Part shown: in pieces, positions 7,769 through 53,533 of the stretch
How positions within the stretch are numbered: the first letter of the stretch is position 1
Layout of the letters: every line of letters begins with the position of its first letter
Virus record (IMG/VR): IMGVR_UViG_3300036823_000136
Location: 1 to 61,394 of that record
Direction: 5' to 3' (one strand)
From: a virus
Lineage: Duplodnaviria > Caudoviricetes
DNA length: 61,394 bases
Made by a program: the position numbers and the translations under genes
The notes under the pieces: model-generated
Seen by the model: the letters and a program-made list of their open reading frames with translations, nothing else
Told to the model about the DNA's origin: nothing
Databases searched by the model: none

Positions 7769-7774
7769 GCATGA

Positions 7775-7891
7775 TCATCTCCCGTCGTTCTTGCGCTTGC
7801 CGACGATCCCCATGACCCAGCCGGAGTACAGCCACAGGCCGATGGTGAGCACGGCAAAGGCGACGAACCCGACCCACGTCCCGGCGCTCAC
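7775..7891 (-). CDS. 38-aa single-TM microprotein
   Basis: MSAGTWVGFVAFAVLTIGLWLYSGWVMGIVGKRKNDGR; GTGA overlap with upstream gene. Confidence 0.55.
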   Translation of the reverse strand: MSAGTWVGFVAFAVLTIGLWLYSGWVMGIVGKRKNDGR

Positions 7892-9100: not shown

Positions 9101-9606
9101 CAGAGTTCCCCGTCCATCGTGATCTCTTCGAGGCGTAGGCCGACGCCGGGCCACACGACCGGCGCGCCCACGCCGTACACCTGCAACGACTGGAGCGTCC
9201 ACGTGCCGCCGATGGTGAACAGTCGCTCGGGCCGGTCGTGGCCGCCCTTGATCTCGCCGCCGACCACCGCGACGCCGCACCCGATAAGCGGGATCTCCGG
9301 AGGGTTCGGGCCCATCCTTTTCGGCAGCAACGAGTCCTCGTAATCCGGGAACATCCGGAACAGCTCGCTGAGATCGAGCTGACCGCGACCGTGCAGCTCC
9401 GCGCCGTAGACCTCCTGGAGCACGGTGACGCCCTCGACGCGCCCGACGATTTCGTTGGCGCCGTCGCTGCGCAGGTCGACGGCGATCACCGGAACCGGCA
9501 TGGCCGGGAAGTGCCGGGGGTCGTCGTCGAACTCCAGGACCCGGCCGTCCTGGGTGGCCACGTTCAGCCGGGCAATGACGCCGCTGAAGCTGGCTGTGCT
9601 GGTCAC
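9100..9606 (-). CDS. Stand-alone protein resembling the first domain of the maturation protease
   Basis: ATQDGRVL..PVPV..EIVGRV..LHGRGQLD mirrors ETADGRYL..PLSV..EVVGKI..WQGRGEVD. Confidence 0.6.
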   Translation of the reverse strand: MTSTASFSGVIARLNVATQDGRVLEFDDDPRHFPAMPVPVIAVDLRSDGANEIVGRVEGVTVLQEVYGAELHGRGQLDLSELFRMFPDYEDSLLPKRMGPNPPEIPLIGCGVAVVGGEIKGGHDRPERLFTIGGTWTLQSLQVYGVGAPVVWPGVGLRLEEITMDGEL

Positions 9607-9926
9607 TGGCCGCCCTCCCGCCGGTTCAGGCGAACTCGGCGGAAGGCCTCGTTCACGGCGCTGACGGCCTGCTCCAGTGACAGCGGCAGCGAGGGCAATG
9701 GCGTGGCCTCCCACTCGGTGATCGGCATCCCGCCGTCGGTCAGGTGTTCGACATCCGCGGGCTCCGTCTTGGGCTTCACCTCGGGGTCGTTCAACGGCAA
9801 GATCTGCGCGTCCACGCGGTCCAAGGTGTCGATGAAGCGCTGAGCCGCGCCGGTGGTGAAGAACGGGCCGTACGCGCTCTGGCCGCCCTTGCCTCCGTAA
9901 CTCACGGCCACCACGTAGCGGATCAC
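9603..9926 (-). CDS. Hypothetical protein
   Basis: Coupled ORF with phage-like codon usage. Confidence 0.6.
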   Translation of the reverse strand: MIRYVVAVSYGGKGGQSAYGPFFTTGAAQRFIDTLDRVDAQILPLNDPEVKPKTEPADVEHLTDGGMPITEWEATPLPSLPLSLEQAVSAVNEAFRRVRLNRREGGQ

Positions 9927-10291
9927 CGGGATGGCCAGGGCGACGTGTCGCGGGCCCAGTTCGGCACCCAGCGCTTGAGCTGGACTCCGCACCCGCACCC
10001 GCCGGACGGAGTGATGATCATCAGCCCGTCCGCGGTGAAGATGTCCTGGCCGACGGCGCGCGCGTGCGGGTTCGGCGGCGTCGTCTGCTCGAAGTCGATG
10101 GCGCTGCTCCAGTGCGGCGCGTCTCCCGAACTGGGCTTCGTCCAGAAGACGTGCATGCCCGTGTCGGTCAGGTAGACCCGGCACAAGCCGCGGGACTTCC
10201 CGGCGGCCGGGTCGTAGACGGTGGCCGGCCAGTACTCGACGTAGACGGTGGACGGCGTGGTGAACGGCTCAGCGGCCGTAGTCTCCGGCAT
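9923..10291 (-). CDS. Hypothetical protein (probably leaderless)
   Basis: ATG 6 nt after TAGACT -10 box; C-terminal GCGCG. Confidence 0.7.
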   Translation of the reverse strand: MPETTAAEPFTTPSTVYVEYWPATVYDPAAGKSRGLCRVYLTDTGMHVFWTKPSSGDAPHWSSAIDFEQTTPPNPHARAVGQDIFTADGLMIITPSGGCGCGVQLKRWVPNWARDTSPWPSR

Positions 10292-10309
10292 GCCGCGAGT
10301 CTAATCCTT

Positions 10310-10326
10310 CCCCCCAAGACGGGGTA
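10310..10326 (-). promoter_or_regulatory. C6-N5-G6 operator 1, upstream of -10 box
   Basis: CCCCCCAAGACGGGGTA. Confidence 0.65.
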
Positions 10327-10337
10327 GAGACGACACC

Positions 10338-10376
10338 AAAAAGCCCCGCCCAATCTCGGAGAGATCGACCGGGGCT
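10338..10376 (-). terminator. Intrinsic terminator
   Basis: AGCCCCG..CGGGGCT stem followed by T5 on - strand. Confidence 0.7.
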
Positions 10377-10473
10377 GCTTGGGTCAGCGGTACTGGGGGC
10401 CGTGTTCGCCCGGTTCGGTGTCCAGGTATCCCTGGTCCTAAGCCTGGCTACTGGGGCCCTTGTTCCCGCCAGC
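10338..10473 (-). ncRNA. Candidate small RNA with two internal 17-nt repeats
   Basis: TTGCCC-N18-TAACCT promoter, no credible ORF, intrinsic terminator at 10338-10376. Confidence 0.5.
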
Positions 10474-10489
10474 CAAGCCAGGTTAGCAC

Positions 10490-10506
10490 GCCCCCAGAAT
10501 GGGGGG
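10490..10506 (-). promoter_or_regulatory. Operator 2 in sRNA promoter
   Basis: GCCCCCAGAATGGGGGG. Confidence 0.7.
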
Positions 10507-10564
10507 CAACATGGACGATCCCCCGTCGTGCTGTGGACACGGCCGGGGGATCGCGGCGAAGAGC

Positions 10565-10747
10565 TTACCGAAGGAGCTTGCGAAGGCGGTCGCGAGCCCT
10601 CGCCACCCTGTCCACCCACTGATCCAGCTCGACTTCACCGGCAACCATCCAGATCTGGCGGCCGTCGTCGTCCTCCAGCTCGTCGAGCAGATCGAGCAGC
10701 GCCAGCGTGGCGGGGGTGACCTCGTCGGGCTTCTCTTCGCTGGCCAC
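10565..10747 (-). CDS. Hypothetical protein
   Basis: 60-aa ORF ending an operon, followed by a hairpin near 10518-10552. Confidence 0.6.
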   Translation of the reverse strand: MASEEKPDEVTPATLALLDLLDELEDDDGRQIWMVAGEVELDQWVDRVARARDRLRKLLR

Positions 10748-11194
10748 TCAGACCACCGCCTTCTTGACGTAGGACCGCGGGTAGAGCACCTCGTGGCCGC
10801 CGACGTTCACGCGCACCGTGTTCGACGGCGCGACCACGGTGCCGCGTACGCCGCCGATGACGATCACCTCTTCGCCGACCTCGAAGTCCTCACCAGGCTG
10901 GTCGCCCCGGGGAAGCAGCTTCCGGGGAAGCGAGTGGTGGCGCACCAGCTCGATGAACGCCATGATGGCGTCCGCGCGCTCCCACGCCAGGTCGTTCTGC
11001 GCGGAGTCGCCAGCGGAGCCCACGTCTTTCACGGCCCCGCACGCTTCGACCAGCATCTCCTGGAATTCCGTGGACCTGATCCCCGCGTCGGGCAGTCGGG
11101 TTGACCGGACGGCGGCGGTCGCCTCGTTCAGCGACTTGGCCAGTGCGGCGGCGAGATCGGCGGCGGCGCGCTCGATCCCGCTGGGCGTGCTCAC
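10748..11194 (-). CDS. Hypothetical protein with possible C-terminal SH3/KOW-like segment
   Basis: FEVGEEVIVIGGVRGTVV..VRV; coupled start. Confidence 0.6.
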   Translation of the reverse strand: MSTPSGIERAAADLAAALAKSLNEATAAVRSTRLPDAGIRSTEFQEMLVEACGAVKDVGSAGDSAQNDLAWERADAIMAFIELVRHHSLPRKLLPRGDQPGEDFEVGEEVIVIGGVRGTVVAPSNTVRVNVGGHEVLYPRSYVKKAVV

Positions 11195-11598
11195 GCGTCC
11201 TTCTCGACGTAGAAGGCTTCGACGAGGTACCGCGCGACGGAGACCCAGTTTGAGCCCGCGAGCGGCTCGCCGTTGAAGTGGTCCGACAGCCAGTAGTCCA
11301 GCTCCTCGACGGTGACGGCCCGGCGCACGCCGTCCGGCACCGGCACAAGCTCGCGCGGCGCCGGCCGGTCCTTGGACCACACCACCGGCTTCGCCTGGTC
11401 GTCGGCAACCCACTGCTTGTCGCCGTTCGGTCCGGTCGCGACTTGCCAGACCATCCCGCACGGGCGCTTGCCGCTGCCCAGCGGTGACCGGCACTCCCAG
11501 CGCGCCCCGACCTTCACGCCCCAGCTGAGCCACGGCAGCTTGCACATGTGCTCCTGGGCACCGGGCGGCAGCCACTTGCCCTTCATACGGTCGGCCAT
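11191..11598 (-). CDS. Hypothetical protein
   Basis: Coupled ORF, Cys/His/Trp rich. Confidence 0.65.
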   Translation of the reverse strand: MADRMKGKWLPPGAQEHMCKLPWLSWGVKVGARWECRSPLGSGKRPCGMVWQVATGPNGDKQWVADDQAKPVVWSKDRPAPRELVPVPDGVRRAVTVEELDYWLSDHFNGEPLAGSNWVSVARYLVEAFYVEKDA

Positions 11599-11831
11599 CA
11601 GGCGCCCTTTCCGTGGTCCGCGGGGTTAGCCAGCGGGTTGCAGATGCAGTGGGGGTCCTTGCACAGGCAGTAGTCGTTCAGCTCCTCGTCGTCCAGGTTC
11701 ATCACCGGCGCGTCCTCTGCGGCGTGGCCGCACTTCTCGCACCGGCCCCAGTCGACCGTCTTCCGGTCGATCACGCGCATTGCGTCGTCGAACTTCTGCC
11801 GGGCGGCCTTGAAGGCTCCGAACATGATCAT
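11598..11831 (-). CDS. Small Cys-rich protein
   Basis: CEKCGH and CLCKDPHCIC. Confidence 0.6.
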   Translation of the reverse strand: MIMFGAFKAARQKFDDAMRVIDRKTVDWGRCEKCGHAAEDAPVMNLDDEELNDYCLCKDPHCICNPLANPADHGKGA

Positions 11832-12205
11832 CCTTTCCGGGTTTTCGGGTCAGCCGGCGGGCGCTCCGGACCGTGGAGCGGCTCCTGCCTCAGCCAGCGG
11901 AGATTGCGCTCCATCAGGCCACCCCACACGCCGTAGTGCGAGGCGTCCGGGTGGTTGATGGCGTACTCCAGGCAGCGCACGCGCACTGGGCAGCGGAAAC
12001 ACAGGGCTCGCGCCTTCCGATCGGCGTTGCTGACCTTGGCGCCCTCGGCGACGAAGTAGAACTCCGGGCCGACCTCGGCGCACAGCGCGCCGGGAAATCC
12101 GAACCCGCGGTCCACGTCCAGCCTGCGGGCGAGGACGGCGACCGCCCGGGAGTTCAGCGCGGGGTACGACGAGCTGGCGCCGCCGTTGCGGCCTGGACGG
12201 ATCAT
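11828..12205 (-). CDS. whiB: WhiB-family transcriptional regulator
   Basis: Four Cys (LC..CFRCPVRVRC) and GVWGG turn. Confidence 0.9.
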   Translation of the reverse strand: MIRPGRNGGASSSYPALNSRAVAVLARRLDVDRGFGFPGALCAEVGPEFYFVAEGAKVSNADRKARALCFRCPVRVRCLEYAINHPDASHYGVWGGLMERNLRWLRQEPLHGPERPPADPKTRKG

Positions 12206-12606
12206 TGCAATCCACTCCTGGGGTAGGGCACGGGCAGGACTCGGCGGGCAGGGCCGTTCATGGCTTCGATGTCGGTGATGGGCTGGGAGTCGACGTACAC
12301 GCCGTACAGCTCGCGCGCGGCGGCGTACGCGGCGTCCAGGATCGAGCCGGGCTCTTCGGGCATCAGCTCGAACTCGAAGACGTGGCCGCCCAGGTGGGCT
12401 TCGTACAGCTCGATGTCCTGGGGCGCGGTGTAGCGCCGGGGTGCCGGGGTCTGCACTCGCGGCACCAGGTTGGTGCCGTCGGTGTCGTACGACTGGGCGG
12501 CGCTGGGCTTCTTGCCGGGCTTGGCCCAGGTGCCGGAGTAGGCGAGGGCAATCGTGGACACCCACGAGCGGACTCGGGTGCGCCAGGTCATGCGGTGCTT
12601 AGCCAC
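12202..12606 (-). CDS. Hypothetical protein
   Basis: GTG after GAAGGAG. Confidence 0.65.
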   Translation of the reverse strand: MAKHRMTWRTRVRSWVSTIALAYSGTWAKPGKKPSAAQSYDTDGTNLVPRVQTPAPRRYTAPQDIELYEAHLGGHVFEFELMPEEPGSILDAAYAAARELYGVYVDSQPITDIEAMNGPARRVLPVPYPRSGLQ

Positions 12607-12886
12607 GACGGTGCTCCTTCGGGTCCGGGGTCGACTCGAACGGAGCGAAGAACGCTGCCGCGAGCCGGTGGCGCTCTTCCAGCTCGGCGCGAGCGCTGGC
12701 GTGAGCTGCCTCGACGAGGCGTTGCCGCGAGCGCTGGCGCATGTGCTCTTGGAGCGCGAGCGCGGTTTCGACCTGGAGGCGATCGCGGCGAGATGGCCGC
12801 CAGAGGGCCAGCCCCAGGGCCAGGCCGACGAGCGCGGAGAAGGCAACCATGACGATCAGGTCGGCCAGGCTCAGGTTGATGATCAT
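12599..12886 (-). CDS. Membrane protein
   Basis: N-terminal TM; SD GAGG; downstream of operator 3. Confidence 0.65.
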   Translation of the reverse strand: MIINLSLADLIVMVAFSALVGLALGLALWRPSRRDRLQVETALALQEHMRQRSRQRLVEAAHASARAELEERHRLAAAFFAPFESTPDPKEHRRG

Positions 12887-12924
12887 TTCGGTGTCCTCTG
12901 TCGGGAGTCTTGTCGAGGATCTTA

Positions 12925-12941
12925 CCCCCCGAAATGGGGGT
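12925..12941 (-). promoter_or_regulatory. Operator 3 abutting TAAGAT -10 box
   Basis: CCCCCCGAAATGGGGGT. Confidence 0.75.
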
Positions 12942-13072
12942 ACGAAAGGTGAAGCCCGGGGCGGAAGAGAAGACGCCCCGGGATCCAGGTCAGCGGTGAG
13001 GACAGTTCGGGCCGTGGCCCTCGTTCGGGAACCGGCCGCAGGTCCCGCATTGCTGCGGGTGCTTCGCCCTGC

Positions 13073-13687
13073 TCACTTGCACGCCGCCGTCTGGTGCGCG
13101 CCGTACGTGGCCTGGACCTTGGTGAACTGGTCCCCGGCCTTGGACGACAGCTGGCCGATGAGCCCGGTGCACGAGAACGACGTGAAGTCGAGGTACTCCT
13201 GAGCCGACTTCGCCGCTTGCGCGTTCCAGTCCACGCCCAGGCTGTCCACGGCCTGGGTCGCCACGTCCTGCGGGTAGCCGTCGCCCGCCTTCGAGGACAG
13301 CTGTCCGACCAGGCCATCGTGAGAGAAGGCCTTGAACCCCAGGTAGGACTGCGCGGAGTCGCGCGCCTGCTGGACCTGGGGCGGGAACTCCGGCGCCTGG
13401 GTAACCGGCGCGGCGGTGGCGCTGTCGGCGGTCCCCGGGAGCTTGGCCCACTCGCATGTGTAGGGGTCCCAGGCCACCGAGCTGCCGTCGGCGGGCGGCG
13501 TCGGCGCGCCCTTGGGCTCCGGGCAGACGGAGGTGGGCGCGGTGGGCGCCGCCGGGCTCGCGGCCGGAGTGGCGCCGCCCGTCACGCTGATGACGATCCC
13601 GAGGACGACGAGGCCGCCGACAATCGCGCCGGTGATCTTCAGGCCACGGTGCTTCTTCTTGGGCTTCGGCTGGATGGGGTAGGACAT
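13073..13687 (-). CDS. ltp: Ltp-family surface protein (superinfection exclusion type)
   Basis: TM anchor, Pro/Ala linker, two repeats A..SA..YL....FS..GL..QL. Confidence 0.85.
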   Translation of the reverse strand: MSYPIQPKPKKKHRGLKITGAIVGGLVVLGIVISVTGGATPAASPAAPTAPTSVCPEPKGAPTPPADGSSVAWDPYTCEWAKLPGTADSATAAPVTQAPEFPPQVQQARDSAQSYLGFKAFSHDGLVGQLSSKAGDGYPQDVATQAVDSLGVDWNAQAAKSAQEYLDFTSFSCTGLIGQLSSKAGDQFTKVQATYGAHQTAACK

Positions 13688-13715
13688 GGCGCCTGCTTTC
13701 GCGGTAGGAGTGCTT

Positions 13716-13770
13716 GCGTGGACCCGGGAGGAGTTGAACCTCCGCTGGCCGATCCGGTATCGGCGGGCCC
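13716..13770 (-). ncRNA. Minimal tRNA-like element lacking a D-arm
   Basis: GGGCCCG/CGGGTCC acceptor stem, GGAGG-TTCAACT-CCTCC T-arm, one extra hairpin, ends ACGC rather than NCCA. Confidence 0.55.
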
Positions 13771-13776
13771 CCTGAG

Positions 13777-14178
13777 TCAGTGGCGGGCGGGGCGCTTCTC
13801 GCCCTTGAACTCGCGGATGATCTTGACGAGGAAACCGGCCTCGTCCTCCGGAACCAGCGCAAGCACGTCGGCCACGGCCTGCTTGGTGGCCTTGGCCACG
13901 GTCATCCCGTCGAGCATCAGCTCGCGGCGGCGCTCAGCCAGCGCGGCGGCGGCGCGGTCCATGAAGTCGTTCGCGGTGAACTGGCGGGCAGGCCAGGGGC
14001 GCCCGCTCCGGCCACAGTCGAGGCAGTCGATCTGCTCGTGGTCGAGAGCCACGTCCGCTCGGAGCATCGCCTTGCTGCCGGTGAACGCCACGTTGGCGCT
14101 CTTGCACGTGAGGCACGTCCAGTTGCGGATGTCCATCGGGTCGACCATCGATTCGATGCGGATCGTGCTGGTGTTCAT
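13777..14178 (-). CDS. Hypothetical protein with two CxxC motifs
   Basis: CLTC and CLDC; SD AGGAGGG. Confidence 0.7.
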   Translation of the reverse strand: MNTSTIRIESMVDPMDIRNWTCLTCKSANVAFTGSKAMLRADVALDHEQIDCLDCGRSGRPWPARQFTANDFMDRAAAALAERRRELMLDGMTVAKATKQAVADVLALVPEDEAGFLVKIIREFKGEKRPARH

Positions 14179-14223
14179 GGCGGGCCCTCCTGGGCTTCAG
14201 TGTTGGTGACTGGTTCAATCTAT

Positions 14224-14240
14224 CCCCCCATTATGGGGGG
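14224..14240 (-). promoter_or_regulatory. Operator 4 in SigA promoter TTGACA-N18-TAGATT
   Basis: CCCCCCATTATGGGGGG fills the spacer. Confidence 0.85.
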
Positions 14241-14288
14241 TGTCAAGCGATTGGGGCGGGGAGCTTTTCGAGCCCCCCGCCCGGGTTG

Positions 14289-14510
14289 TCAGAAGTCGCT
14301 CTCCTCCAGCTCCGCGACGCTCCACGTGTCGCCGTTGGGCGTGACCCGCCACATCCCCTTTTCCTGCTCGACGTGCTCGACATCGACCGGGGTCGTCTCG
14401 GTGATCAGCTTGTAGATCAAGTCCTTGAAGTCCTCCACCGTCAGCTTGTCCTCGAAGAAGGTGAAGAAGTCGAAGAGCTGGGCGACGTTGAAGTTCTGAG
14501 CTGAGAGCAT
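14289..14510 (-). CDS. Small acidic hypothetical protein
   Basis: SD GGAGG; own promoter and downstream hairpin. Confidence 0.7.
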   Translation of the reverse strand: MLSAQNFNVAQLFDFFTFFEDKLTVEDFKDLIYKLITETTPVDVEHVEQEKGMWRVTPNGDTWSVAELEESDF

Positions 14511-14547
14511 CCGGGGCCTCCGTGGTCTGTGTGTGAACACAGTCTAT

Positions 14548-14564
14548 CCCCCCATTATGGGGGG
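14548..14564 (-). promoter_or_regulatory. Operator 5 in promoter TTGTGT-N18-TAGACT
   Basis: CCCCCCATTATGGGGGG. Confidence 0.8.
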
Positions 14565-14627
14565 ACACAACCCCCTGGGGAGAGAAACTTGTCCGCCGGA
14601 AGGGGGCCAATCGTCGTTTCGGGCTGT

Positions 14628-14644
14628 ACCCCCAAGATGGGGGG
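14628..14644 (+). promoter_or_regulatory. Operator 6 directly upstream of the transfer operon
   Basis: ACCCCCAAGATGGGGGG. Confidence 0.75.
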
Positions 14645-14648
14645 TGAG

Positions 14649-14837
14649 ATGATGAGACGCATGAGACTTCGACTGCTCGTGGCCGGACTGGTCCTCGCGG
14701 GGATCGCCGGCACGCTGGCCGGCCAGTTGCCCCTCGTGGCCGCCGGCCTCATCGTCCTGTACGTCATCTCGATGTTCGTCCGGGACCACCTCCGCCGAAA
14801 GCGCGGCGGCTGGTCCGGCGGACGCGACCGGTACTGA
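14649..14837 (+). CDS. Small 2-TM membrane protein (Spd-like); exact start uncertain
   Basis: Hydrophobic hairpin with basic tail; first gene of the + strand operon. Confidence 0.65.
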   Translation: MMRRMRLRLLVAGLVLAGIAGTLAGQLPLVAAGLIVLYVISMFVRDHLRRKRGGWSGGRDRY

Positions 14838-16531
14838 AGGGATCGACATGAACCGCCTGCCTGCCCTCTCCGTCGCCCGGCTCCGCATCTTCGCCGGGCT
14901 CACCATCGCCGCCGCCGCCGCGATCAGCTTCGAGTCGATCCGGCACCTCGCCGTCATCGGCGGCTTCGGGACGCTGGCCATCCTCTTCCCGCTCACCCTC
15001 GACGCGGTCGCCGCGTACGGCATGGACCTGTGGGTCCGCCGGTCCCCCGCCGCGCGCCAGGCGAAGTGGCTCGCGCTGTCGGCCATCTTCGGGTCGCTCG
15101 TCGCGAACGTCGTGGACCACTGGCTCACCCAGCGCGCGGTCCTGGGCGCGGTCCTGGGCGCGGTCCCGCCGGGCATGCTGGCCGCGCTGCTCGCCGTCGC
15201 GCACAAGCACGCGAGCGGTACCGAGGACCAAGCGGTCCCGTTCGACCCGGCGGTCCGGGACGCGGTCTGGTCCGCGCTGCCGCAAGCGGACCGTCGCGTG
15301 GTCCCGCCGCCGGACCGCTACGTGGTACCGAGCGAAGTTCTCGCGCTCGCGGTACCAACCGTTGGACCGCTGGACGCAATGGCGGACTTCCGGTCCCACG
15401 AAGACAAGTTCTGGTCCAAGGTAGAAATGGGCGGTCCGGAGGAGTGTTGGCCGTTCGTCGGGTCCCGGACCCCTGAGGGGTACGGGAAGTTCACGATCGG
15501 GGACCGCACGTACCGGGCCCACCGCATCGCCTGGTCCATCGCTACTAACCAGGTGGTCTCGGGGGATCTGATGGTTCGCCATCTCAAGTGCGACAACCCG
15601 CCGTGCTGCAACCCCGCACACCTGGCTGAAGGCACCGCGGCTGATAACGCGGCCGATCGCGTCCAACGTCTCGCGAAGCTGGAGGTCGTCCAGTCGCTCG
15701 ACGCCAAAATCATGGAGCGGAGCACCCGCCGGACCAGCGCCGCGCGGACCCCCAATCCCGCGGTCCGGCGGACCACCTCCGCCACGGTCCACAGCGACAG
15801 CGACATCGTCACCTGGATCAAGGACCAGCCCAGCCCCACGAAGCGCGCCGTCATGGCGAAGTACTCGGTCGGCTCCGGCCGCGCGCTCCGTCTCATCTCG
15901 CAGGCCAAGGAGGTCTGATCATGGCCAAGCAGCCAGGCGGACTGAACATCGTCCGTGACGTTCTCTGGGTGAAGTTCGCCCTGTGGATCGGCGCCAAGCT
16001 CGGTCGAACCGGGCGGCGTCTCGTGTTCCGCTGGCGTCGCGTCCTCTCGCCGGTCATCTTCGCGACGCTCCTGTGGGCGGTCGCGGCCATCTGGAACTTG
16101 ACCTTCCCCGAGTGGTGCTGGCTCGCGCTCGTGATCCCGGCCGCCGGTGGGACCGTCGCGTGGTTCGGACCGGTGCTGTCGGAACGGTGGTCCCTCATCG
16201 TCACGAAGCTGGTCCCGACCGGACTGGACCGCGGACGGTCCGGGGTGCTGGACCGCCTGATCGAGCGGGCCTACTTCGCCGGTCTCAGTACCACCATCGG
16301 CGGGTACCTGTTCATCCGGTCCGGCTGGGGCGGATCGGACCTCACGCTGTGGTGGTGGCGCGTGGGACTGGTCCTGTTCGGCGGCGCGTGGTGGTACCAC
16401 CGCCGGGTCCGGATGGCTGGGCGCGGGGACCGCGTCGCGCGGCGCTGGGGCCGGATCAACGAGGGCCGGACCAACAGCCGGCTGGCGCCGCTGATCGGGT
16501 CCAAACCCGTCGAGGTTCACGGCCGCGGTCC
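14690..16531. repeat. Dense cluster of GGWCC (plus GGTACC) motifs overlaid on coding sequence
   Basis: About 46 GGACC/GGTCC by manual count, about 40 per kb in the cores versus about 7 in nt 1-1000. Confidence 0.75.
14848..15918 (+). CDS. SpdA/DUF2637-like membrane protein with in-frame HNH domain and C-terminal HTH-like domain
   Basis: SF..I.HLA, FPL.LD, S..ANV and AVPP TM motifs; FWSKV..CW..GYG..AHR..RH.CDNPPCCNPAHL..GT..DN; C-terminal PTKRAVMAKYSVGSGRALRL. Confidence 0.8.
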   Translation: MNRLPALSVARLRIFAGLTIAAAAAISFESIRHLAVIGGFGTLAILFPLTLDAVAAYGMDLWVRRSPAARQAKWLALSAIFGSLVANVVDHWLTQRAVLGAVLGAVPPGMLAALLAVAHKHASGTEDQAVPFDPAVRDAVWSALPQADRRVVPPPDRYVVPSEVLALAVPTVGPLDAMADFRSHEDKFWSKVEMGGPEECWPFVGSRTPEGYGKFTIGDRTYRAHRIAWSIATNQVVSGDLMVRHLKCDNPPCCNPAHLAEGTAADNAADRVQRLAKLEVVQSLDAKIMERSTRRTSAARTPNPAVRRTTSATVHSDSDIVTWIKDQPSPTKRAVMAKYSVGSGRALRLISQAKEV

Positions 16532-17840
16532 GGTGACGGTCATGAAGATCAAGCTCGCGGAGGCTCTCACCCTCGCGGACATGTCTCGTCTCGTCGAGCC
16601 GCTCGCGAGCTACTACGGGATTCGGCCGCGGGCGATCAAGCCGCGCGAGGACCACGGCAACGCCCGGTACGTCTGGCTCACTTTCCTGCCGACCGACCCG
16701 TGGAAGCACGAGCTGCCGCACCCGGCGCCAGCTGTCGGCTCGATCTCGATCGCCAAGACGAAGGGGAAGATCCTCGTCGGGATCAAGGCCGACGGCGAAG
16801 AGCAGTCGTGGATCGTGCAGCACGCGGGCCTGTACGGCAAGACGCGGTCCGGAAAGTCGGGATTGATCCACTCCCTGCTGATGTGGATCTCCGCCTACAC
16901 GGACGCGATCGCCGTCGGCATCGACATGGCCGGCGGAGCCACGCTGGGCGCCTGGCAGCCGATGTTCGCGCGGCCGATCGCCACGAACCTCGACGAGGCG
17001 ATCGTGCTGCTGGAGCGCGTGCTCGCATTCATCCAGGTCAGGGAGCGTGCGATCGGCGCCGACGACTTCGAGGACGACATCTTCGAGCCGTCCGACGAGT
17101 TCCCGTGGTTGTTCCTGGTCATCGACGAGTTCCCGAACCTCTTCACCGCGGCGAAGGCGGCCGGGCAGATGGGCGATGGGCCGAACGCGAAGAGCTACTT
17201 CAAGTACGTCGTGGGCCTGCTCGACCAGATCGCCAAGCAGGCGGCCAAGACGGGGACGATCTTGGTTGAGGGTGCCCAGAACCCGACGAAGGACGACAAC
17301 GGCTCGAAGGAGTTCCAGGCCCAGCTCCGTTCGACCTTCGGCTTGGGGCTCGACGAATTGCAGTCGCGCAACCTGTGGGGCGTCAAAGAGCGCCTGGGCT
17401 GGACCGGCACTGACCTGGCCAAAGGCCAGTACCGGCTGCACGACGACGACCACACCGTCCCCGAGGTCGCCAAGGGGTACTGGGTCCCGAAGCACCAGCG
17501 CAAGAAGCAGGCCGCCGCCGCCGCGAAGCTGCGCAAGTGCGCGGAGCCGACGGCCTGGGCGGCGCTGATGGGCGTGGACGCGCCGGTCATCGACGCCATC
17601 AGCATCTCCAGCGCGCCGGCCGACCGCGTGCTGGCCGCCCTGCTCGACGGGCCGATGAAGGTCGTTCCCGAGCTGGTCGACGCCTCCGGGCTCAGCAAGG
17701 CCCAGGTGTACCGCCGGCTCAACGGCCACGGCGAGGCTGGCCTGGTCCACCGGCTGGAGGACTACCGCTACCAGCTCACGGACGCGGGCCGGGCGTTCCT
17801 GCGCGGCGAGGACCCGGGCACCTGGAAGCGAGTCTCATGA
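15921..17840 (+). CDS. traB: TraB-like FtsK/SpoIIIE DNA translocase
   Basis: N-terminal TM helices, Walker A GKTRSGKS, Walker B FLVIDE, C-terminal winged helix (ELVDASGLSKAQVYRRL..GLV). Confidence 0.85.
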   Translation: MAKQPGGLNIVRDVLWVKFALWIGAKLGRTGRRLVFRWRRVLSPVIFATLLWAVAAIWNLTFPEWCWLALVIPAAGGTVAWFGPVLSERWSLIVTKLVPTGLDRGRSGVLDRLIERAYFAGLSTTIGGYLFIRSGWGGSDLTLWWWRVGLVLFGGAWWYHRRVRMAGRGDRVARRWGRINEGRTNSRLAPLIGSKPVEVHGRGPVTVMKIKLAEALTLADMSRLVEPLASYYGIRPRAIKPREDHGNARYVWLTFLPTDPWKHELPHPAPAVGSISIAKTKGKILVGIKADGEEQSWIVQHAGLYGKTRSGKSGLIHSLLMWISAYTDAIAVGIDMAGGATLGAWQPMFARPIATNLDEAIVLLERVLAFIQVRERAIGADDFEDDIFEPSDEFPWLFLVIDEFPNLFTAAKAAGQMGDGPNAKSYFKYVVGLLDQIAKQAAKTGTILVEGAQNPTKDDNGSKEFQAQLRSTFGLGLDELQSRNLWGVKERLGWTGTDLAKGQYRLHDDDHTVPEVAKGYWVPKHQRKKQAAAAAKLRKCAEPTAWAALMGVDAPVIDAISISSAPADRVLAALLDGPMKVVPELVDASGLSKAQVYRRLNGHGEAGLVHRLEDYRYQLTDAGRAFLRGEDPGTWKRVS

Positions 17841-17918
17841 TCTCGTCTCGTCCGGGACGCACGTAACGCGCAGACGGGCGAGAATCCCCTGAGAATATCG
17901 CAAAAGTGAGACGGTCTA

Positions 17919-17935
17919 ACCCCCATTACGGGGGG
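17919..17935. promoter_or_regulatory. Operator 7 within an extended palindrome
   Basis: TCTAACCCCC-ATTACG-GGGGGTTAGA. Confidence 0.7.
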
Positions 17936-17953
17936 TTAGATTGGGACAAAACA

Positions 17954-17989
17954 AGGCCCCCGGAGCGGATATTCTCGCTCCGGGGGCCT
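17954..17989. terminator. Terminator between convergent units
   Basis: 14-bp perfect stem AGGCCCCCGGAGCG. Confidence 0.75.
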
Positions 17990-17996
17990 GTTCTCT

Positions 17997-18013
17997 ACCC
18001 TCAACTTGGGGGT
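17997..18013. promoter_or_regulatory. Operator 8 (degenerate)
   Basis: ACCCTCAACTTGGGGGT. Confidence 0.5.
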
Positions 18014-18540
18014 CAGGTGGTCCTGATCAGCTTTGGGCGGCCGTCGTAGGCGTTCGCCAGGGCGGCCACCGCGCGCTCCCGGCTCTCCGCCACGTCAGCC
18101 CGCGGCTTGACCTGGCCGGCCCACGCGTACCCGACGGACCACGCGCGGCCGACCGGCTCGACGTAGCCGATCGGCCGGTCGTCGAGCACGATCCACCAGC
18201 GGCCCGGCGTGCGCTCGCCCGCGGGTGACACCCGGGTTCGGCGGAGCCCGCGCTTGCGGAGCCCCTTCCAGCGCCGGGTCTCCGCGGACAGCGCGCCGGC
18301 CTGGAGACCGGAGCAGCTCGCGCAGTGGATGCGCAGGTTGTCCAGCGTGTACTTCCCGCCGCGGATACCCGGCACGATGCGGTCACAGATCATCGTGGTG
18401 TAGGTGACGATGGTCAGGCACTCCCAGCACGACGCGGTGGTGCCGTCGCCGTCGCGCTCCAGCAACGCCTGCTTGCGCTTGCGTCGTTGGCTCGCCGACC
18501 CCCGCGAGTTCGAGTTCGAGGTTCCGCGCGGTCCACTCAC
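18013..18540 (-). CDS. HNH-type endonuclease
   Basis: CWEC..DRIVP..GG.Y..DNL..HCASC. Confidence 0.75.
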   Translation of the reverse strand: MSGPRGTSNSNSRGSASQRRKRKQALLERDGDGTTASCWECLTIVTYTTMICDRIVPGIRGGKYTLDNLRIHCASCSGLQAGALSAETRRWKGLRKRGLRRTRVSPAGERTPGRWWIVLDDRPIGYVEPVGRAWSVGYAWAGQVKPRADVAESRERAVAALANAYDGRPKLIRTT

Positions 18541-18809
18541 CAGGCCGCCCTCCACACGCCGTTGGCCTCGGGGACGATAGTCGGCTGGATCACGCCCAGC
18601 TGGAAGAAGGTCTCATCGAGCCAGAACTCGGTGAGGAAGTCGCGGCCGTCGGGGCTCCACGCCTCCACAGCGCACTCCCCGACCTCGCGGACCTCCAGGC
18701 GCTCGACGTGGTTGCTCTCCGCGCCGGTGCCGGTCACGGCCGCGAACTCCTTGGTCGCCCGCCGGAACGACTGGGCGAACACCGTCTCCGTCACCTCAGA
18801 AGGCAGCAT
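18537..18809 (-). CDS. Hypothetical protein
   Basis: Coupled ORF. Confidence 0.6.
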   Translation of the reverse strand: MLPSEVTETVFAQSFRRATKEFAAVTGTGAESNHVERLEVREVGECAVEAWSPDGRDFLTEFWLDETFFQLGVIQPTIVPEANGVWRAAW

Positions 18810-19167
18810 TACCGTCTTCCTCTCCCACGATCGACGCGTAGTGGTAGTGCGGGTCCATCGCCTGGCGCACGCACTTGTAGACCTCGCTGGGGTGGTGGTC
18901 CGGGTTCAGAAACGTGATCTCGTCGAGCGCGGACTGAGCGGCCTCAGCGGTGTCGTAGACCGGCTTGCCGGAGTAGTGGCACAGGGCGATCCGCGCGTAC
19001 CCGGCGGACCAGTCCATCCGGCCGTAGCGCATGACCACGTCGCGGCGCTGGGTGCCGCCCTGGTTCTCCGCCCAGTACGCCTGGCCTTCAGGCTTGTAGT
19101 GCTGGCGGCGGCGGTCCGCTCGCTTCCTGTTCAGGCGGTTGGACTGGCTCGATCCGGACCTTCTCAT
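18796..19167 (-). CDS. Hypothetical protein with Cys/His motif
   Basis: C..SGK..Y..A..A and VYKC..H.H; ATGA overlap. Confidence 0.6.
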   Translation of the reverse strand: MRRSGSSQSNRLNRKRADRRRQHYKPEGQAYWAENQGGTQRRDVVMRYGRMDWSAGYARIALCHYSGKPVYDTAEAAQSALDEITFLNPDHHPSEVYKCVRQAMDPHYHYASIVGEEDGNAAF

Positions 19168-19916
19168 CGTGAGGCCTCCAGGAGTGCGACGACCGGCGTC
19201 CACCAGGGCGCGCCGTAGGCGATCAGGGTCAGCGCGCCGATGGCTCCGGTGAGCACGGCGAAAGCGCTGGTGGCGATGCGCTCGCCGGTGAACATCGGCT
19301 TGCGCTTGAGCACGACGTGCTTGTCCGAGAACGGGATCTTGACCTTCTCGCCCTTGCGGACGCCACCGGCGCGGAACCGCATCCACCGCGGGAAGCCCAC
19401 GGTGGCCCAGCGTTTGCCATCCATGACGACGAGCGGGCATAGCGGGTGCGGCACGCCGGACAGCGTGCAGGCGTCCCCGATGAACCAGATGTGACAGAGG
19501 CACCCGACGGTGAAGGCGAGCGCCCACATCGGCGCCAGCGCGACGTGACCGGCGAGCAGCCCCGCGTACACGGCGCCGCCGGTGAGCAGCGTCCCGAAAT
19601 TCGTGTGCGTGAACGTGCGGTGGACGGCCTCCGGCTTGTCCTTCTCGGTGCGGGTGGCCTGGTAGACAACGTGGCTGATCCACATGAACAGCTTGTTGAG
19701 CAGCCAGCTGACCGGCCCCGCCACCTTCGATATGAAAGCGGGCGGGTGGTCGATGTCCGGCCACAGCGCACCGATGCCGACGATGGCTGAGTACGCCACC
19801 GTGCGCGCGACGGCGGTAGCCGGAGTGGCGGGCCCGCTCGTGGTCAGTTCGAGCGCCAGCGGCGCCGTGAGCAGCCCGGCGGCCACGCCGGAGAGGAAGT
19901 GGCCTTTCGCCATCAT
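19164..19916 (-). CDS. YdjM-like membrane-bound metal-dependent hydrolase
   Basis: H..SG, PDIDHP, HRTFTH and H..GD..T..GVP motifs. Confidence 0.85.
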   Translation of the reverse strand: MMAKGHFLSGVAAGLLTAPLALELTTSGPATPATAVARTVAYSAIVGIGALWPDIDHPPAFISKVAGPVSWLLNKLFMWISHVVYQATRTEKDKPEAVHRTFTHTNFGTLLTGGAVYAGLLAGHVALAPMWALAFTVGCLCHIWFIGDACTLSGVPHPLCPLVVMDGKRWATVGFPRWMRFRAGGVRKGEKVKIPFSDKHVVLKRKPMFTGERIATSAFAVLTGAIGALTLIAYGAPWWTPVVALLEASR

Positions 19917-20050
19917 CGATCATCACCGGCCAGCTCGCGCAGCTCTCGAAGCACGCGCTCCGCGACGTACTGGCGGTCCTCGCCACCGTCGAGCGCGTCC
20001 TCCAGCGCATCCGTTATGCGCCGGAGTTCCTCCAGCTCCAGGCGGGTCAC
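19913..20050 (-). CDS. 45-aa helical microprotein
   Basis: MTRLELEELRRITDALEDALDGGEDRQYVAERVLRELRELAGDDR; overlaps both neighbours by 4 nt. Confidence 0.55.
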   Translation of the reverse strand: MTRLELEELRRITDALEDALDGGEDRQYVAERVLRELRELAGDDR

Positions 20051-20262
20051 TGGTTCTCCAGGGCAGTCCGGAGGGCGTCCAGGTTGTCGGTCAAGTCCTT
20101 GACCAGAGTCAGTGCGGAGGCCAGGTACTCATCAGTGGGCGGCGCCGTGGAAACCCAAGCCGGGTGTTCCATGTAGGCCACATCCGCCGTCAGGTCGGAG
20201 ACCATCTTGCGGATCTGCTCGACGTACTCGCCGGCGGAAACGTGCGCTTCGGGTTTCGTCAT
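20047..20262 (-). CDS. Hypothetical protein (probably leaderless)
   Basis: ATG 6 nt after TACAGT. Confidence 0.7.
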   Translation of the reverse strand: MTKPEAHVSAGEYVEQIRKMVSDLTADVAYMEHPAWVSTAPPTDEYLASALTLVKDLTDNLDALRTALENQ

Positions 20263-20275
20263 GGGGTCACTGTAT

Positions 20276-20292
20276 CCCCCTATTCTGGGGGG
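20276..20292 (-). promoter_or_regulatory. Operator 9 in promoter TTGCGT-N18-TACAGT
   Basis: CCCCCTATTCTGGGGGG. Confidence 0.8.
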
Positions 20293-20302
20293 ACGCAATG
20301 GT

Positions 20303-20770
20303 CTATTCGATACCGAGCAGGCGTCGGTTCTCGATCACGCGCTGAACCATCGGCGTGTCCTCGCGGAAGATCCTGCCCGCCGGCGAGCGCCACCGGCCGT
20401 CGGCGAGCCGAGCCCACTCGCTCGGGTGACGAATGTCCGACCGCACGGTGCGGTCGCGCCGCCGCGGTGGCTGGCGAAGCTCGGTGTCGGGATCGCCGGG
20501 CACCACGTCGGTGAGTGCGTCCAGGTCGTAGACCTCGCCCTTCCAGGCGGCGTAGCTGGCCAGCTGGACCTCGGTGAAGGCGCACTGGATGGCGGAGAGC
20601 AGCTCCCGCTGGTTCCGCGCCACGGCCGCCCAGCCGCGGGCCTGGGGCGAGGACACGCGCAGGCCTCCATCCACCTGCTCCACGACGAGGGCCACCCGGC
20701 GCGTCTGGTGCGCGATCGCGGGCGGCCCCATCACCTCTTCGGTGACCTGGCGGCGGAGGGGGCTCGTCAT
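20303..20770 (-). CDS. Hypothetical protein, possibly HicB-like N-terminal fold
   Basis: LVVEQVDGGLRVSSPQARGWAAVARNQRELL; coupled to terL. Confidence 0.55.
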   Translation of the reverse strand: MTSPLRRQVTEEVMGPPAIAHQTRRVALVVEQVDGGLRVSSPQARGWAAVARNQRELLSAIQCAFTEVQLASYAAWKGEVYDLDALTDVVPGDPDTELRQPPRRRDRTVRSDIRHPSEWARLADGRWRSPAGRIFREDTPMVQRVIENRRLLGIE

Positions 20771-22560
20771 CGGAACCGCCGGGACTCGCCTTGGCGGCGG
20801 ATCGTGTTGCCCAGGCCGACTGACGGGCGCGTCGGCAGCGGCTGGACCGGCCGCGCGGGCGCCGGGTTGGCGGTGGCCGCGTCCGTCTTGGACAGCTCGG
20901 TGAGCCCGTGCACGTAGGCGTCCATCCGGTCCGGGCTGTCGAGCCCCTCCTTCCAGCTGACCAGCTGGTGCTGAAGCTCGGGGAACAGGCCGACGTGGTG
21001 CACCTTGCCGTACTCGTGCAGCGGCGCCACCATCTGCGCGCGGAACGTCTTCGTGCCCTTCGGCGTGATCGGCCGGATCGGAATACCGGTCTCTGGCAGC
21101 GCGAGCACCTTCGGCACCAGCGGCCACAGGGCGGCCAGGGACTTCTCCATGGCCAGAACCTCCTCCGGCTCCGCGTCGTCGCGCACCAGCGCGCGTGCGG
21201 CGACGTGGATCAGCGCTTCGTCGGCCACGCGGGCGCGCTTGCCCGGCATCTTCTTGAACGGGTCCAGCTCGTGCAGCTTGACCGCGTCACGGCGGATGTC
21301 CTTCCAGGCTTGCCGGCCGCTCTTGCGGAGCTGGGACAGCGACCGCTCGTAGCGGATGGCGGTGGCGTCGTGGCGGAGCGCGGCGAGGAAGGCCCGGCGG
21401 AACCACTGGCCGACGGTCATGTGCCCGGACTCGTCAGCGAGCAGGTAGAAGTGCTCGTCCACGCCGCGGGCCAAGGTGACGATGCCAGCCTCGTCGCCGT
21501 CGCCCTCGTTGTCCGCAGGGTCCACGAAGACCTCCGTGCGGAGCAGCTCCGGCGCGACCGGCACGCGGTGGTAGGCGATCCAGGCCAGCTGGAACACGCC
21601 ACCGGCAGGTGGGTGCGGGTCGGCATCGTAGAGCGCGGCCCAGACCCACTCGCCAACCCGGCGCCGGATATCATCCCAATCCGAGGGCTTCCGACCGCGC
21701 GTGCTCACGAGGTACTCGCCGGCCTTACGCCCCAGCGGGTCGTTGCTCTTGGCGATCGCGGGGATAACGAGCTGGTGGAAGTCCGGGCGCTGGCTCTGCT
21801 CGTCCTGCGCAATGAGCCGGCCGATCAGGTCGTCCTCGTGCCAGCGGGTGCCGATGACCACCAGGAGCGCGCCGGGCGACAGCCGGGTGGACGCCACCGA
21901 GAGGTACCAATCCCACATCAGCTGCCGCTGTTGCGGGCTCCCGGCCTGCTGGGGTCCCTTCACCGCGTCGTCGATGATCAGCACGTCGGCAGATCGACCC
22001 GTGAGCGCGCCACCCACGCCGACCGCGACCATGCCGCCGTTCCGCCGGCCGGGCGTGTCGGTCAGGGACCAGTTCGTCTGCTGCGCGCGGTCCGGGTCCA
22101 GGATCAGTCCCAGCTGGTCTTCCTGGTGCGCGTAGTGCCGGTCGCCCTTGTAGCCGGCGCCGTAGGTCTCGATCGACTGGCGGACCGCGAGCGTGGAGCG
22201 TCCGGCCACGGACTGCTCATAGGAGGCGACGACGATCCGTCGCGTCGGGTCGCGCATCAGGAGCCACAGCGGGACCGCGGTGCCCATGCGCATCGTCTTG
22301 CCCTCCTGAGGAGGGGTGGAGATGATCCATCGGCGCTGGAAGCCGGAGTCCGCGGCGATCGCCACCTGATCGAGCGCGGTCATCATCTTCGTCTGGACGG
22401 TGTCGGGCTGGATGAACTTGGCGATGTGGCCGGGCGAGGGGAACCGCTCCAGGGCCTTCCGTCGACGGAGGATGCGATCGAGCCGGAGCTGAGCGAGGCG
22501 CCGCTCGCCGGGGTTCAGCTCGTCGAGCTTGCGGCGTACCTCCAACTCCAGGTCGATCAC
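20767..22560 (-). CDS. terL: Terminase large subunit
   Basis: PPQEGKT Walker A, LIIDD Walker B, GTRWH, VFVDPA and SPDRMDA nuclease motifs. Confidence 0.92.
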   Translation of the reverse strand: MIDLELEVRRKLDELNPGERRLAQLRLDRILRRRKALERFPSPGHIAKFIQPDTVQTKMMTALDQVAIAADSGFQRRWIISTPPQEGKTMRMGTAVPLWLLMRDPTRRIVVASYEQSVAGRSTLAVRQSIETYGAGYKGDRHYAHQEDQLGLILDPDRAQQTNWSLTDTPGRRNGGMVAVGVGGALTGRSADVLIIDDAVKGPQQAGSPQQRQLMWDWYLSVASTRLSPGALLVVIGTRWHEDDLIGRLIAQDEQSQRPDFHQLVIPAIAKSNDPLGRKAGEYLVSTRGRKPSDWDDIRRRVGEWVWAALYDADPHPPAGGVFQLAWIAYHRVPVAPELLRTEVFVDPADNEGDGDEAGIVTLARGVDEHFYLLADESGHMTVGQWFRRAFLAALRHDATAIRYERSLSQLRKSGRQAWKDIRRDAVKLHELDPFKKMPGKRARVADEALIHVAARALVRDDAEPEEVLAMEKSLAALWPLVPKVLALPETGIPIRPITPKGTKTFRAQMVAPLHEYGKVHHVGLFPELQHQLVSWKEGLDSPDRMDAYVHGLTELSKTDAATANPAPARPVQPLPTRPSVGLGNTIRRQGESRRFR

Positions 22561-53397: not shown

Positions 53398-53481
53398 GTT
53401 CGGCCCCTTCCATCTCGTCTCGGTGACGGGGGCCGTCCGGTGCTTAGAGCGCCAGCGCGAGGGGCTTGGAGCCGAAACGCG

Positions 53482-53521: not shown

Positions 53522-53533
53522 ATCGAACGCGCG

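Follow-up and report, generated by a model that had tools for sequence, protein, structure and literature searches.

Mobile nuclease genes that lie inside other genes avoid harm to their hosts by splicing, which acts at the RNA level for introns and at the protein level for inteins. Free-standing HNH_3 (I-HmuI-type) endonucleases of phages, actinophages among them, are separate genes, with a start and a DNA-binding domain of their own. In actinobacterial conjugative plasmids and the integrative and conjugative elements of actinomycetes (AICEs), a gene for a DUF2637 protein is found upstream of a gene for an FtsK-type translocase (NZ_CP115453). In ICP1 Odn, the nuclease domain of a homing endonuclease (T5orf172) was recombined with a DNA-binding domain of other origin (RepA_N), giving a soluble protein with a demonstrated anti-satellite role (PMC10448857). 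HNH_3 endonucleases, the domestication of homing endonucleases, and DUF2637/FtsK pairs are thus each known or annotated separately. Here, we report what appears to be a new combination: a nuclease core that lies in-frame in the linker of a membrane protein, is polymorphic among near-identical phages, and sits inside a conserved motif array. It is encoded by the open reading frame (ORF) at 14848..15918 on the + strand of IMGVR_UViG_3300036823_000136, a virus record of 61,394 bp, referred to as the window at its full length. A full-text search of the main texts of papers returned no description of DUF2637-HNH fusions, and no phage TraB/FtsK-like module of this kind was found among the titles and abstracts listed. 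We hold with moderate confidence that the HNH domain is a locus-specific, homing-type nuclease module, which does not splice, is translated within its host protein, and is lodged in a tolerant linker. Most likely, it acts as a selfish nuclease that moves between alleles and does not form a fixed component of a machine.

The ORF starts with ATG, encodes 356 amino acids (aa), and has a G+C content at third codon positions (GC3) of 0.88, like other genes. An earlier reading of this DNA, made without database searches (the sequence-only reading), had described four transmembrane helices, a linker, an apparently intact HNH domain, and a small helix-turn-helix (HTH) domain. This anatomy was recovered by an AlphaFold2 (AF2) model built on 75 aligned sequences, by hydropathy, and by profiles. 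The N-terminal domain (aa 1-125; 14848..15222) holds four hydrophobic helices within aa 6-122 according to both AF2 (helices 7-37, 41-62, 68-95, and 108-122) and hydropathy, with a predicted local distance difference test score (pLDDT) of 50-74. It is followed by a linker (aa 126-177; 15223..15378) that is disordered as judged by pLDDT, which is 42-52 in the blocks of aa 151-170 and 74-80 over a helix at aa 134-143. Behind the linker lies the in-frame HNH_3 (His-Me finger) module (aa 178-295; 15379..15732), supported by profiles, the AF2 model (aa 180-295, pLDDT ~90, with a long helix at aa 264-296), and structure matches. The HTH-like domain and the stop codon (15733..15918) complete the gene; this domain is modeled as three helices (aa 317-355) with a pLDDT of ~97. 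Basic residues lie in the N-terminus and in the loop at aa 62-74, and under the positive-inside rule the two ends of the protein, with the nuclease, would therefore face the cytoplasm.

A homolog search of 5.8 billion proteins returned 76 matches, of which 75 were DUF2637-type and one (P0074) was a free-standing HNH protein. The query alone gave no match to DUF2637 (PF10935) at E<=1. The family was, however, matched by 7 of the 13 DUF2637-type members of alignment A1 (best E 2.5e-10), which are 54-100% identical to the N-terminal domain of the query. Most homologs also carry a precomputed PF10935 assignment, and an Atlas structure showed a TM-score of 0.62 to a cluster that is 99% PF10935. By transitivity, the N-terminal domain can therefore be assigned to DUF2637. 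The label SpdA-like, given to the protein by the sequence-only reading, has to be dropped: SpdA2 of pIJ101 is a DNA-binding protein of ~14.7 kDa with a conserved N-terminal region, which binds a palindrome inside its own gene, and the word transmembrane does not occur in the main text of its description, whereas the protein studied here is a four-helix membrane protein (PMC4170104). This comparison rests on the published description of SpdA2.

The small C-terminal domain is native to the DUF2637 subfamily. A conserved C-terminal motif was present in 50 of the 75 DUF2637-type homologs, and in the AF2 model of an HNH-less allele the domain was predicted with a pLDDT of ~96. A profile of the domain also matched the distant DUF2637 proteins P0226, P0075, and P0227 (4.5e-14 to 1.5e-8), and gave no match at E<0.01 among the other 150 of the 153 proteins searched, which were essentially matches of the HNH search. 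Because this profile is found both in HNH-less and in distant DUF2637 proteins, the ancestral architecture is predicted to be a membrane domain, a variable disordered linker, and a small HTH domain, with the HNH domain as a later addition. For the same reason, and given the absence of the HTH profile from the other 150 of 153 proteins, we rejected the possibility that the HNH and HTH domains were imported jointly as a whole HNH-HTH endonuclease. The C-terminal domain weakly resembles the FtsK gamma domain (Foldseek E ~2, probability 0.9, root-mean-square deviation 1.8 Å over 39 columns).

The nuclease module itself could be placed with several methods. Against the protein, Pfam HNH_3 (PF13392) matched aa 222-268 with an E-value of 4e-5 and 23.6 bits, just below the cut-off of 24.8, while the six-frame match at 15511-15651 reached 26.5 bits, above it. 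PHROG endonuclease families matched aa 185-288 with E-values down to 5e-24, and 87 structures in BFVD matched at E<=1e-3. Among the best 50 of these 87, the named matches were viral HNH or homing endonucleases, except for a single entry called "DNA binding protein" and a few whose names were unspecific. Solved structures gave less: the sequence search returned only a chance-level match (E 0.72), and Foldseek returned nothing from the PDB at E<=1e-3. The best Foldseek matches from the PDB, the MH1 domain of SMAD1 (E 0.025) and the DNA-binding domains of NFI, are no more than consistent with a His-Me finger, to which MH1 is related.

In an alignment of 333 homologous domains, the query kept the majority residue at every strongly conserved column: C200, W201, H225, R226, H245, C248, C253, N255, P256, H258, L259, G262, T263, N267, and D270. 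The zinc-site set was nearly invariant (C200 in 331/333, C248 in 325/333, C253 in 332/333, and H258 in 332/333), and H245, N255, and N267 were the majority residues in 291/318, 292/333, and 241/266 domains, respectively. By analogy with I-HmuI-type enzymes, H245 is the presumed general base and N267 a presumed metal ligand. With both the catalytic and the zinc-site consensus present, the nuclease looks intact, in line with the sequence-only reading; its activity, target, and homing are inferred.

The module shares its nuclease family and fold with the free-standing HNH_3 endonucleases of phages. In a tblastn search, the query protein matched 1219 records of cultured phages; in the best 30 of these 1219, the match covered the HNH part only, and most were annotated as HNH endonuclease or endonuclease. 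Many of the best 50 of the 87 BFVD matches aligned over 170-200 columns, corresponding to an HNH domain plus a C-terminal helical part. In contrast to such proteins, the query carries a nuclease core of ~115 aa inside another reading frame and behind four membrane helices. The insert lacks a DNA-binding domain of its own, and the HTH domain that follows it is that of the host protein family.

With inteins and intron-encoded homing endonucleases, the module shares the sporadic presence of a mobile nuclease coding sequence in a host gene. Unlike these, it is accompanied by neither a Hint/intein nor an intron family; nothing suggests its removal, and it sits in a disordered linker. The sequence-only reading had seen no intein motifs, and none of the intein or Hint families in Pfam matched at E<=0.1. 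The residues that we would expect at intein-type junctions (Cys/Ser/Thr, His-Asn) are not conserved in the alignment of HNH-bearing proteins (carriers), and no group I or group II intron family in Rfam matched positions 14000-18200 on either strand at E<=1. Splicing out at the RNA or protein level, which the sequence-only reading had named as an outcome that would speak against it, thus found no support in the Pfam and Rfam searches. The carriers share no conserved start codon at the HNH boundary, and the module is therefore predicted to be translated as part of the fusion protein.

The same lack of a conserved boundary start codon argues against an artefact of assembly or gene calling, by which a free-standing HNH gene would have been wrongly joined to the DUF2637 frame. 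Such an origin might be suspected, as the window is a metagenome-derived virus record and a 92%-identical contig (L003) breaks off shortly ahead of the insert, at window position 15271. An open frame crosses both junctions, however, with the conserved C-terminal domain following in-frame, and five separate protein clusters, which stem from different sources (jgi, ena, and lgn), show the same in-frame architecture. We therefore consider an artefact extremely unlikely.

Comparison with HNH-less alleles, which the sequence-only reading had proposed as a check, allowed the insertion point to be mapped as a replacement at ~15321-15727. The window and the related locus L002 are colinear, with ~86% identity on both sides, and window positions 15324-15726 (403 bp) are replaced by 175 bp in L002. 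Nearly the same boundaries appeared in other soil sequencing runs: in three runs from three studies, contigs join 15321 to 15727 with 177 other nucleotides between them, and in a fourth run, contigs join 15330 to 15869 with 316 nucleotides between them. The HNH insert was on no matching contig in any of these four other soil runs, at mean word depths of ~5 to 126. Short matching pieces at 15408-15452 and 15568-15628 were rejected as HNH-bearing alleles, as they were loose at both ends and only 85-90% alike; we attribute them to motifs conserved in other HNH genes. In the protein, the insert lies after a conserved "VGP" of the linker and before a linker helix. This point falls in a coil stretch of the AF2 model of an HNH-less allele, in which aa 144-189 are coil (block pLDDT 51-58) and are followed by a helix at aa 190-213. 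The linkers of HNH-less alleles are hypervariable.

A second pair of loci, L001 with and L006 without the HNH domain, is still more closely related. Across ~430 bp of N-terminal domain DNA they are 99-100% identical, and their FtsK-like genes are 97-99% identical; over the remainder of the DUF2637 gene, beginning in the linker, the two are in contrast unrelated or ~80% identical. The alignment of L001 and L006 identifies the difference as a cassette replacement between near-identical phages. A small membrane ORF upstream (L001 5757-5950) forms a separate mosaic block, ~70% identical to its counterpart in L006 by estimate, with flanks of 99-100%.

These exchanges could also have taken place without any action of the nuclease. 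The HNH domain would then be a passive passenger that does not spread itself, having lost this ability or never had it, and its patchiness would reflect mosaic recombination of the linker region, tolerated owing to disorder. The hypervariable linkers of HNH-less alleles fit this account. As blocks of 99-100% and of 70-80% or unrelated sequence alternate around the gene in L001 and L006, including the swapped small upstream ORF, block exchange is evidently frequent at this locus without the need for a nuclease. Against it, all five known carriers keep the catalytic and zinc-site consensus despite a mutual identity of 45-74%, which argues for purifying selection on activity. Nor were decayed copies seen: a search for HNH remnants in 72 HNH-less proteins gave none (best E 4.7), by which we also rejected HNH-less alleles as products of recent decay. 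On balance, we regard a passive passenger as quite unlikely.

The DUF2637+HNH architecture, for which the sequence-only reading had proposed a search, is rare: the HNH motif was found in 5 of the 75 DUF2637-type homologs (P0001, P0004, P0005, P0007, and P0009), the sixth motif-bearing match being the free-standing P0074. A second search, seeded with words of the N-terminal domain only, added no new carrier among 64 matches, and a scan of metagenome contigs for the family yielded six loci, none with HNH. The carriers are scattered over the family. In a tree of the N-terminal domain (72 rows, with P0058, P0060, P0074, and P0076 left out), they require 5 changes, where shuffled labels require 4.9 on average. 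For four of the five, an HNH-less sister was found whose N-terminal domain is 98-100% identical, and the C-terminal domains of carriers are nearest to those of HNH-less alleles, never to that of another carrier.

The HNH domains, in turn, are largely tied to this locus. By phmmer domain score, the best four matches of the query HNH domain were the other DUF2637 HNH domains (165, 159, 139, and 102 bits), with the next protein at 98.6 bits. In a search of 1.84 billion representatives, which gave 145,433 matches at E<=1e-3, the best single-stretch match was the carrier P0007. Four of the five DUF2637 HNH domains cluster in a tree of 152 HNH domains. The window contains a single HNH_3 match, that in ORF 14848-15918, and among the four related phage records searched, only that of L001 contains one, in the same gene. 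These matches and the tree mark the module as a locus-tied lineage that occurs in a few unrelated backgrounds. Homing-type elements are typically recognized by sporadic presence at one site between close genomes, which is what we observed (5/75 alleles, two DNA pairs, and 4/4 soil runs), as well as by a sequence-specific DNA-binding module of their own, which is lacking from the nuclease core inserted here. Variable presence between related phages is reported to be a signature of homing endonuclease genes, and nuclease genes are reported to sit at boundaries of genetic exchange (PMC10448857).

A dense array of 43 GGWCC sites (14848..16548) overlies the DUF2637 gene and, in the adjoining gene for a putative DNA pump, codons 1-210. 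Their density is 25.3 per kb in this segment, compared with 3.7 per kb elsewhere (Poisson 7e-22), while the genome as a whole has 263 sites against 257 expected. GGTCC (24 sites) and GGACC (19 sites) occur in the array without bias. In 14 of 15 related loci, the motif was clearly denser inside than outside; for L012 the flank was too short to judge, and in the most distant loci, L009 and L015, the excess was about two-fold. Protein sequence and codon usage do not account for the excess, as judged from the numbers expected per segment by synonymous resampling. The N-terminal domain has 7 sites against 2.5 expected, the linker 8 against 3.5, the C-terminus 5 against 1.6, and aa 1-210 of the pump 15 against 4.4; aa 211-639 of the pump have 6 against 6.3, and six control genes were about at or below expectation. 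The sequence-only reading had noticed GGWCC sites in the first half of the HNH domain, and these are indeed enriched, with 7 observed against 1.5 expected (0 of 2000 resamples reached 7), compared with 0 against 1.5 in the second half.

Its other compositional observation, a greater share of A/T-ending codons in the HNH part, holds for the window but is weak as an argument for later acquisition. The GC3 of the HNH part is 0.83, compared with 0.98 for the N-terminal domain and 0.97 for the C-terminus. This is ~2 standard deviations below the genome mean, for which 118-codon windows of 10 long genes served as the reference (0.92 +/- 0.045). In L001, however, GC3 is 0.88-0.90 in all three parts, without a dip in HNH.

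Several of these results weigh against a homing-type nuclease, and the DNA comparison of carriers covers two of them, the window and L001. The carriers' HNH domains are about as diverged from one another as their host domains (45-74% identity), and the data would therefore also be compatible with an old insertion that was cleanly lost many times, or with mosaic recombination by itself; the change counts on the tree do not separate gain from loss. P0009 stands apart on a long branch in the HNH tree. Classical homing sites are conserved, whereas the sequence that occupies the position of the insert in HNH-less alleles varies strongly, so any homing target must lie in the conserved flanks. Purely selfish elements are expected to pass through a decay phase in a cycle of invasion, decay, and loss, and with no degenerate copies seen, such a phase was not observed here. 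Finally, HNH DNA is enriched in the array motif in both carriers (7 against 2.9 expected in the window and 7 against 1.9 in L001). This indicates that the domain has resided in the array for long enough to share its DNA-level signature, possibly under selection, which fits domestication as well.

Domestication would mean that a membrane-tethered HNH nuclease works together with the TraB/FtsK-like pump and the GGWCC array to the benefit of the phage. It could cut the DNA of a co-infecting relative, a plasmid, or the host at the membrane, in exclusion or competition, or it could nick or cut phage DNA for translocation. Besides the enrichment just described, this idea draws on the direct abutment of the nuclease-bearing gene (stop at 15918) and the translocase gene (start at 15921), on the recurrence of the DUF2637/pump pair in related loci and in one of two actinobacterial plasmid loci inspected, and on the consensus residues kept by all five carriers. 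ICP1 Odn offers a precedent for a homing-endonuclease domain turned into a weapon (PMC10448857); Odn is soluble, and the module described here is a predicted HNH_3 nuclease in a membrane protein. A strongly beneficial weapon, however, should be more frequent or be found in clades, whereas the carriers are singletons, only 5 of 75 alleles carry the domain, and relatives in the four other soil runs are HNH-less. As 70 of the 75 relatives and all four soil runs lack it, the HNH domain is dispensable for the function of the cassette, and since the related loci have the DUF2637/FtsK-like pair, the nuclease is not an essential part of the machine. Functional coupling of nuclease and translocase is thus the weaker of the two readings that the sequence-only reading had offered, and we consider domestication rather unlikely, though a serious rival. 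The alternative of the sequence-only reading, an in-frame homing endonuclease, agrees better with the sporadic, locus-specific distribution. As for the test named by the sequence-only reading, that a catalytically dead and sporadic domain would tell against it, the domain proved sporadic, with its consensus residues intact. Bioinformatics alone does not separate active homing from domestication, as the discussion in PMC10448857 points out, and this holds here too.

If the module is a homing-type nuclease, its spread could proceed as follows. During co-infection, the predicted HNH nuclease would cut HNH-less alleles at or near the locus, and recombinational repair would copy the module into the cut allele, possibly by way of the phage-encoded Erf-like annealing, single-stranded DNA-binding (SSB), and exonuclease functions. 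The disordered linker would tolerate the insertion. DNA binding could be borrowed, a proposal prompted by the lack of a DNA-binding domain in the module itself: it could come from the resident C-terminal HTH domain, the membrane tether, and the nearby GGWCC array. A more specific version of this proposal is unlikely as a whole: here, the nuclease in the disordered linker, free of intein and intron, would be aimed from the membrane at the same locus of HNH-less co-infecting phages by binding of the host HTH domain, the winged helix of the pump, or both to the ~1.5-kb GGWCC array. Purely by analogy with the clt repeats that TraB recognizes (PMC4447253) and with the palindrome that SpdA2 binds in its gene (PMC4170104), the array is a candidate clt-like or centromere-like binding platform for either of these domains.

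The pump gene (15921..17840, + strand) is predicted to encode an FtsK/TraB-like P-loop ATPase that is anchored in the membrane and bears a winged helix at its C-terminus. It was matched by NF041214 TraB with an E-value of 1e-7 and 30.7 bits against a cut-off of 800, by PF01580 FtsK_SpoIIIE with an E-value of 0.007 and 16.2 bits against a cut-off of 24, and by the FtsK/SpoIIIE-like phrog_31069 at 1.8e-11. Families of winged HTH domains in Pfam matched aa 563-628. A Walker A motif (GKTRSGKS) lies at aa 306 and a Walker B-like motif (LFLVIDE) at aa 397, with hydrophobic segments at aa 41-86. The protein may thus be called FtsK/TraB-like by weak profile likeness, rather than a proven member of either family.

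A tblastn search with the pump protein matched FtsK/SpoIIIE genes of 26 plasmids, 24 of which were from Streptomyces, Kitasatospora, or Rhodococcus, with 25-34% identity among the best 15 of the 26; among 50,697 records of cultured phages, only two weak matches to Staphylococcus phages were found. The N-terminal 175 aa of the DUF2637 protein had no tblastn match in the 50,697 phage records or in 72,556 plasmids, a search in which the low-complexity filter may mask membrane helices. A family peptide pattern run against bacterial genomes, one per species, gave 189 pattern matches and no confirmed relative, which for a single pattern is not proof of absence. The gene pair has a plasmid parallel nonetheless: of the two plasmid loci inspected, one (L017, Kitasatospora plasmid NZ_CP115453) encodes DUF2637 just upstream of FtsK, with a 468-aa DUF2637 protein, a "RRQRL motif-containing zinc-binding protein", and then a "DNA translocase FtsK". 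The phage DUF2637/pump pair would thereby mirror the module of this plasmid, both combining a membrane protein with a membrane-anchored ATPase that bears a C-terminal winged helix. Streptomyces plasmids also share a repeated short DNA motif at the locus, in the form of clt repeats near traB; clt regions hold 8-bp direct repeats that are recognized by TraB (PMC4447253). Unlike these plasmid modules, the one described here is carried by a tailed phage in which no integrase was found, and the likeness of its ATPase to TraB is weak (30.7 against 800 bits).

At the head of the + strand cassette lies a small membrane ORF (14649..14837), recognized by a hydrophobic stretch in its translation; its likely start is the ATG at 14649, while the ORF list starts at a GTG at 14529. 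Its counterparts in L001 and L006 form the mosaic block described above. Four copies of the palindrome CCCCCATTATGGGGG (of the form CCCCC-ATTAT-GGGGG) bracket the cassette, at 14225..14239, 14549-14563, 14629-14643, and 17920-17934. With up to three mismatches, the window contains 31 strand-matches of this motif, compared with 1.2 expected, including copies at 10491, 12926, 20277, 23192, 36508, 39594, 54308, 57140, 57538, 60947, and others. A palindrome-like motif also lies upstream of the DUF2637 gene in L001 and L006. The palindrome may be an operator, promoter, or terminator motif of the phage family.

The window is a single contig with ~68% G+C and an estimated completeness of 99%. PHROG profiles matched a tape measure protein (43496-46819, E 2e-126), a major head protein (51661-53673), a portal protein (4733-7351), a large terminase (20767-22743), and a DnaB-like helicase, as well as SSB, an Erf-like annealing protein, an exonuclease, a DNA methyltransferase, and a head decoration protein; a GH25 lysin was found with Pfam. 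No tyrosine or serine recombinase or integrase was found in the record, nor a tRNA in the 61-kb genome. By its gene content, the element is a near-complete genome of a tailed phage, and its structural and packaging genes, together with the absence of a recombinase, led us to reject a conjugative element or plasmid. The reading of the cassette as a moron expressed during lysogeny was dropped as well, since lysogeny cannot be assumed where no such recombinase is found. Gene calling based on GC3 placed nearly all genes on the minus strand, the clear exceptions being ORF 14848-15918 and the ORF that follows. The host is probably an actinobacterium. The homolog-bearing contigs suggest that these soil phages make up a coherent, uncultured family, in which no cultured member was found for either of the two genes. 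More than 12 of these contigs measure 60-64 kb, and a related record with direct terminal repeats has a completeness of 100%.

Other features of the region around the cassette were observed as well. The portal and large terminase genes are ~13 kb apart (7400-20700), an unusual layout for a packaging module, and the stretch between them contains the opposite-strand cassette, an Ltp protein, and many small ORFs. The Ltp protein (13073-13687, minus strand; 204 aa) has two Lipoprotein_Ltp repeats (PF07553, E 2.9e-25) and is encoded just upstream of the + strand cassette; the Ltp domain also occurs in a superinfection-exclusion lipoprotein of a phage. Another presence/absence block adjoins the cassette at 13758-14253: these ~500 bp, which hold ORF 13777-14178 (minus strand; 133 aa with paired Cys motifs), are missing in the colinear L002. 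Another ORF of the HNH type, unrelated to the module, lies at 18013-18555 (minus strand), between the cassette and the terminase region; it gave weak matches to PF01844 and PF14279 (E ~0.003) and may be of a terminase-associated type. The DNA methyltransferase (phrog_363, E 1.3e-26) is encoded at 55878-56636 on the minus strand.

If the favored reading is true, the module represents a third solution next to RNA and protein splicing, in which a mobile nuclease stays in the protein, seated in a disordered linker. Such linker-lodged nucleases may be common yet overlooked, because annotation presents them as fusions of several domains. Matched pairs of alleles, one bearing the insert and one lacking it, occur naturally at this locus and have their junctions mapped, and homing and domestication are therefore directly testable against each other. 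The setting would be new too, as a tailed phage with no integrase found would carry a plasmid-type double-stranded DNA module made up of DUF2637, a TraB/FtsK-like ATPase, and a clt-like array. A family of ~60 kb uncultured soil phages carries a DNA pump module that resembles those of conjugative plasmids and has a conserved motif array embedded in it, a hint that phage DNA might be translocated at the membrane, perhaps from one compartment of a filamentous actinobacterial host to another.

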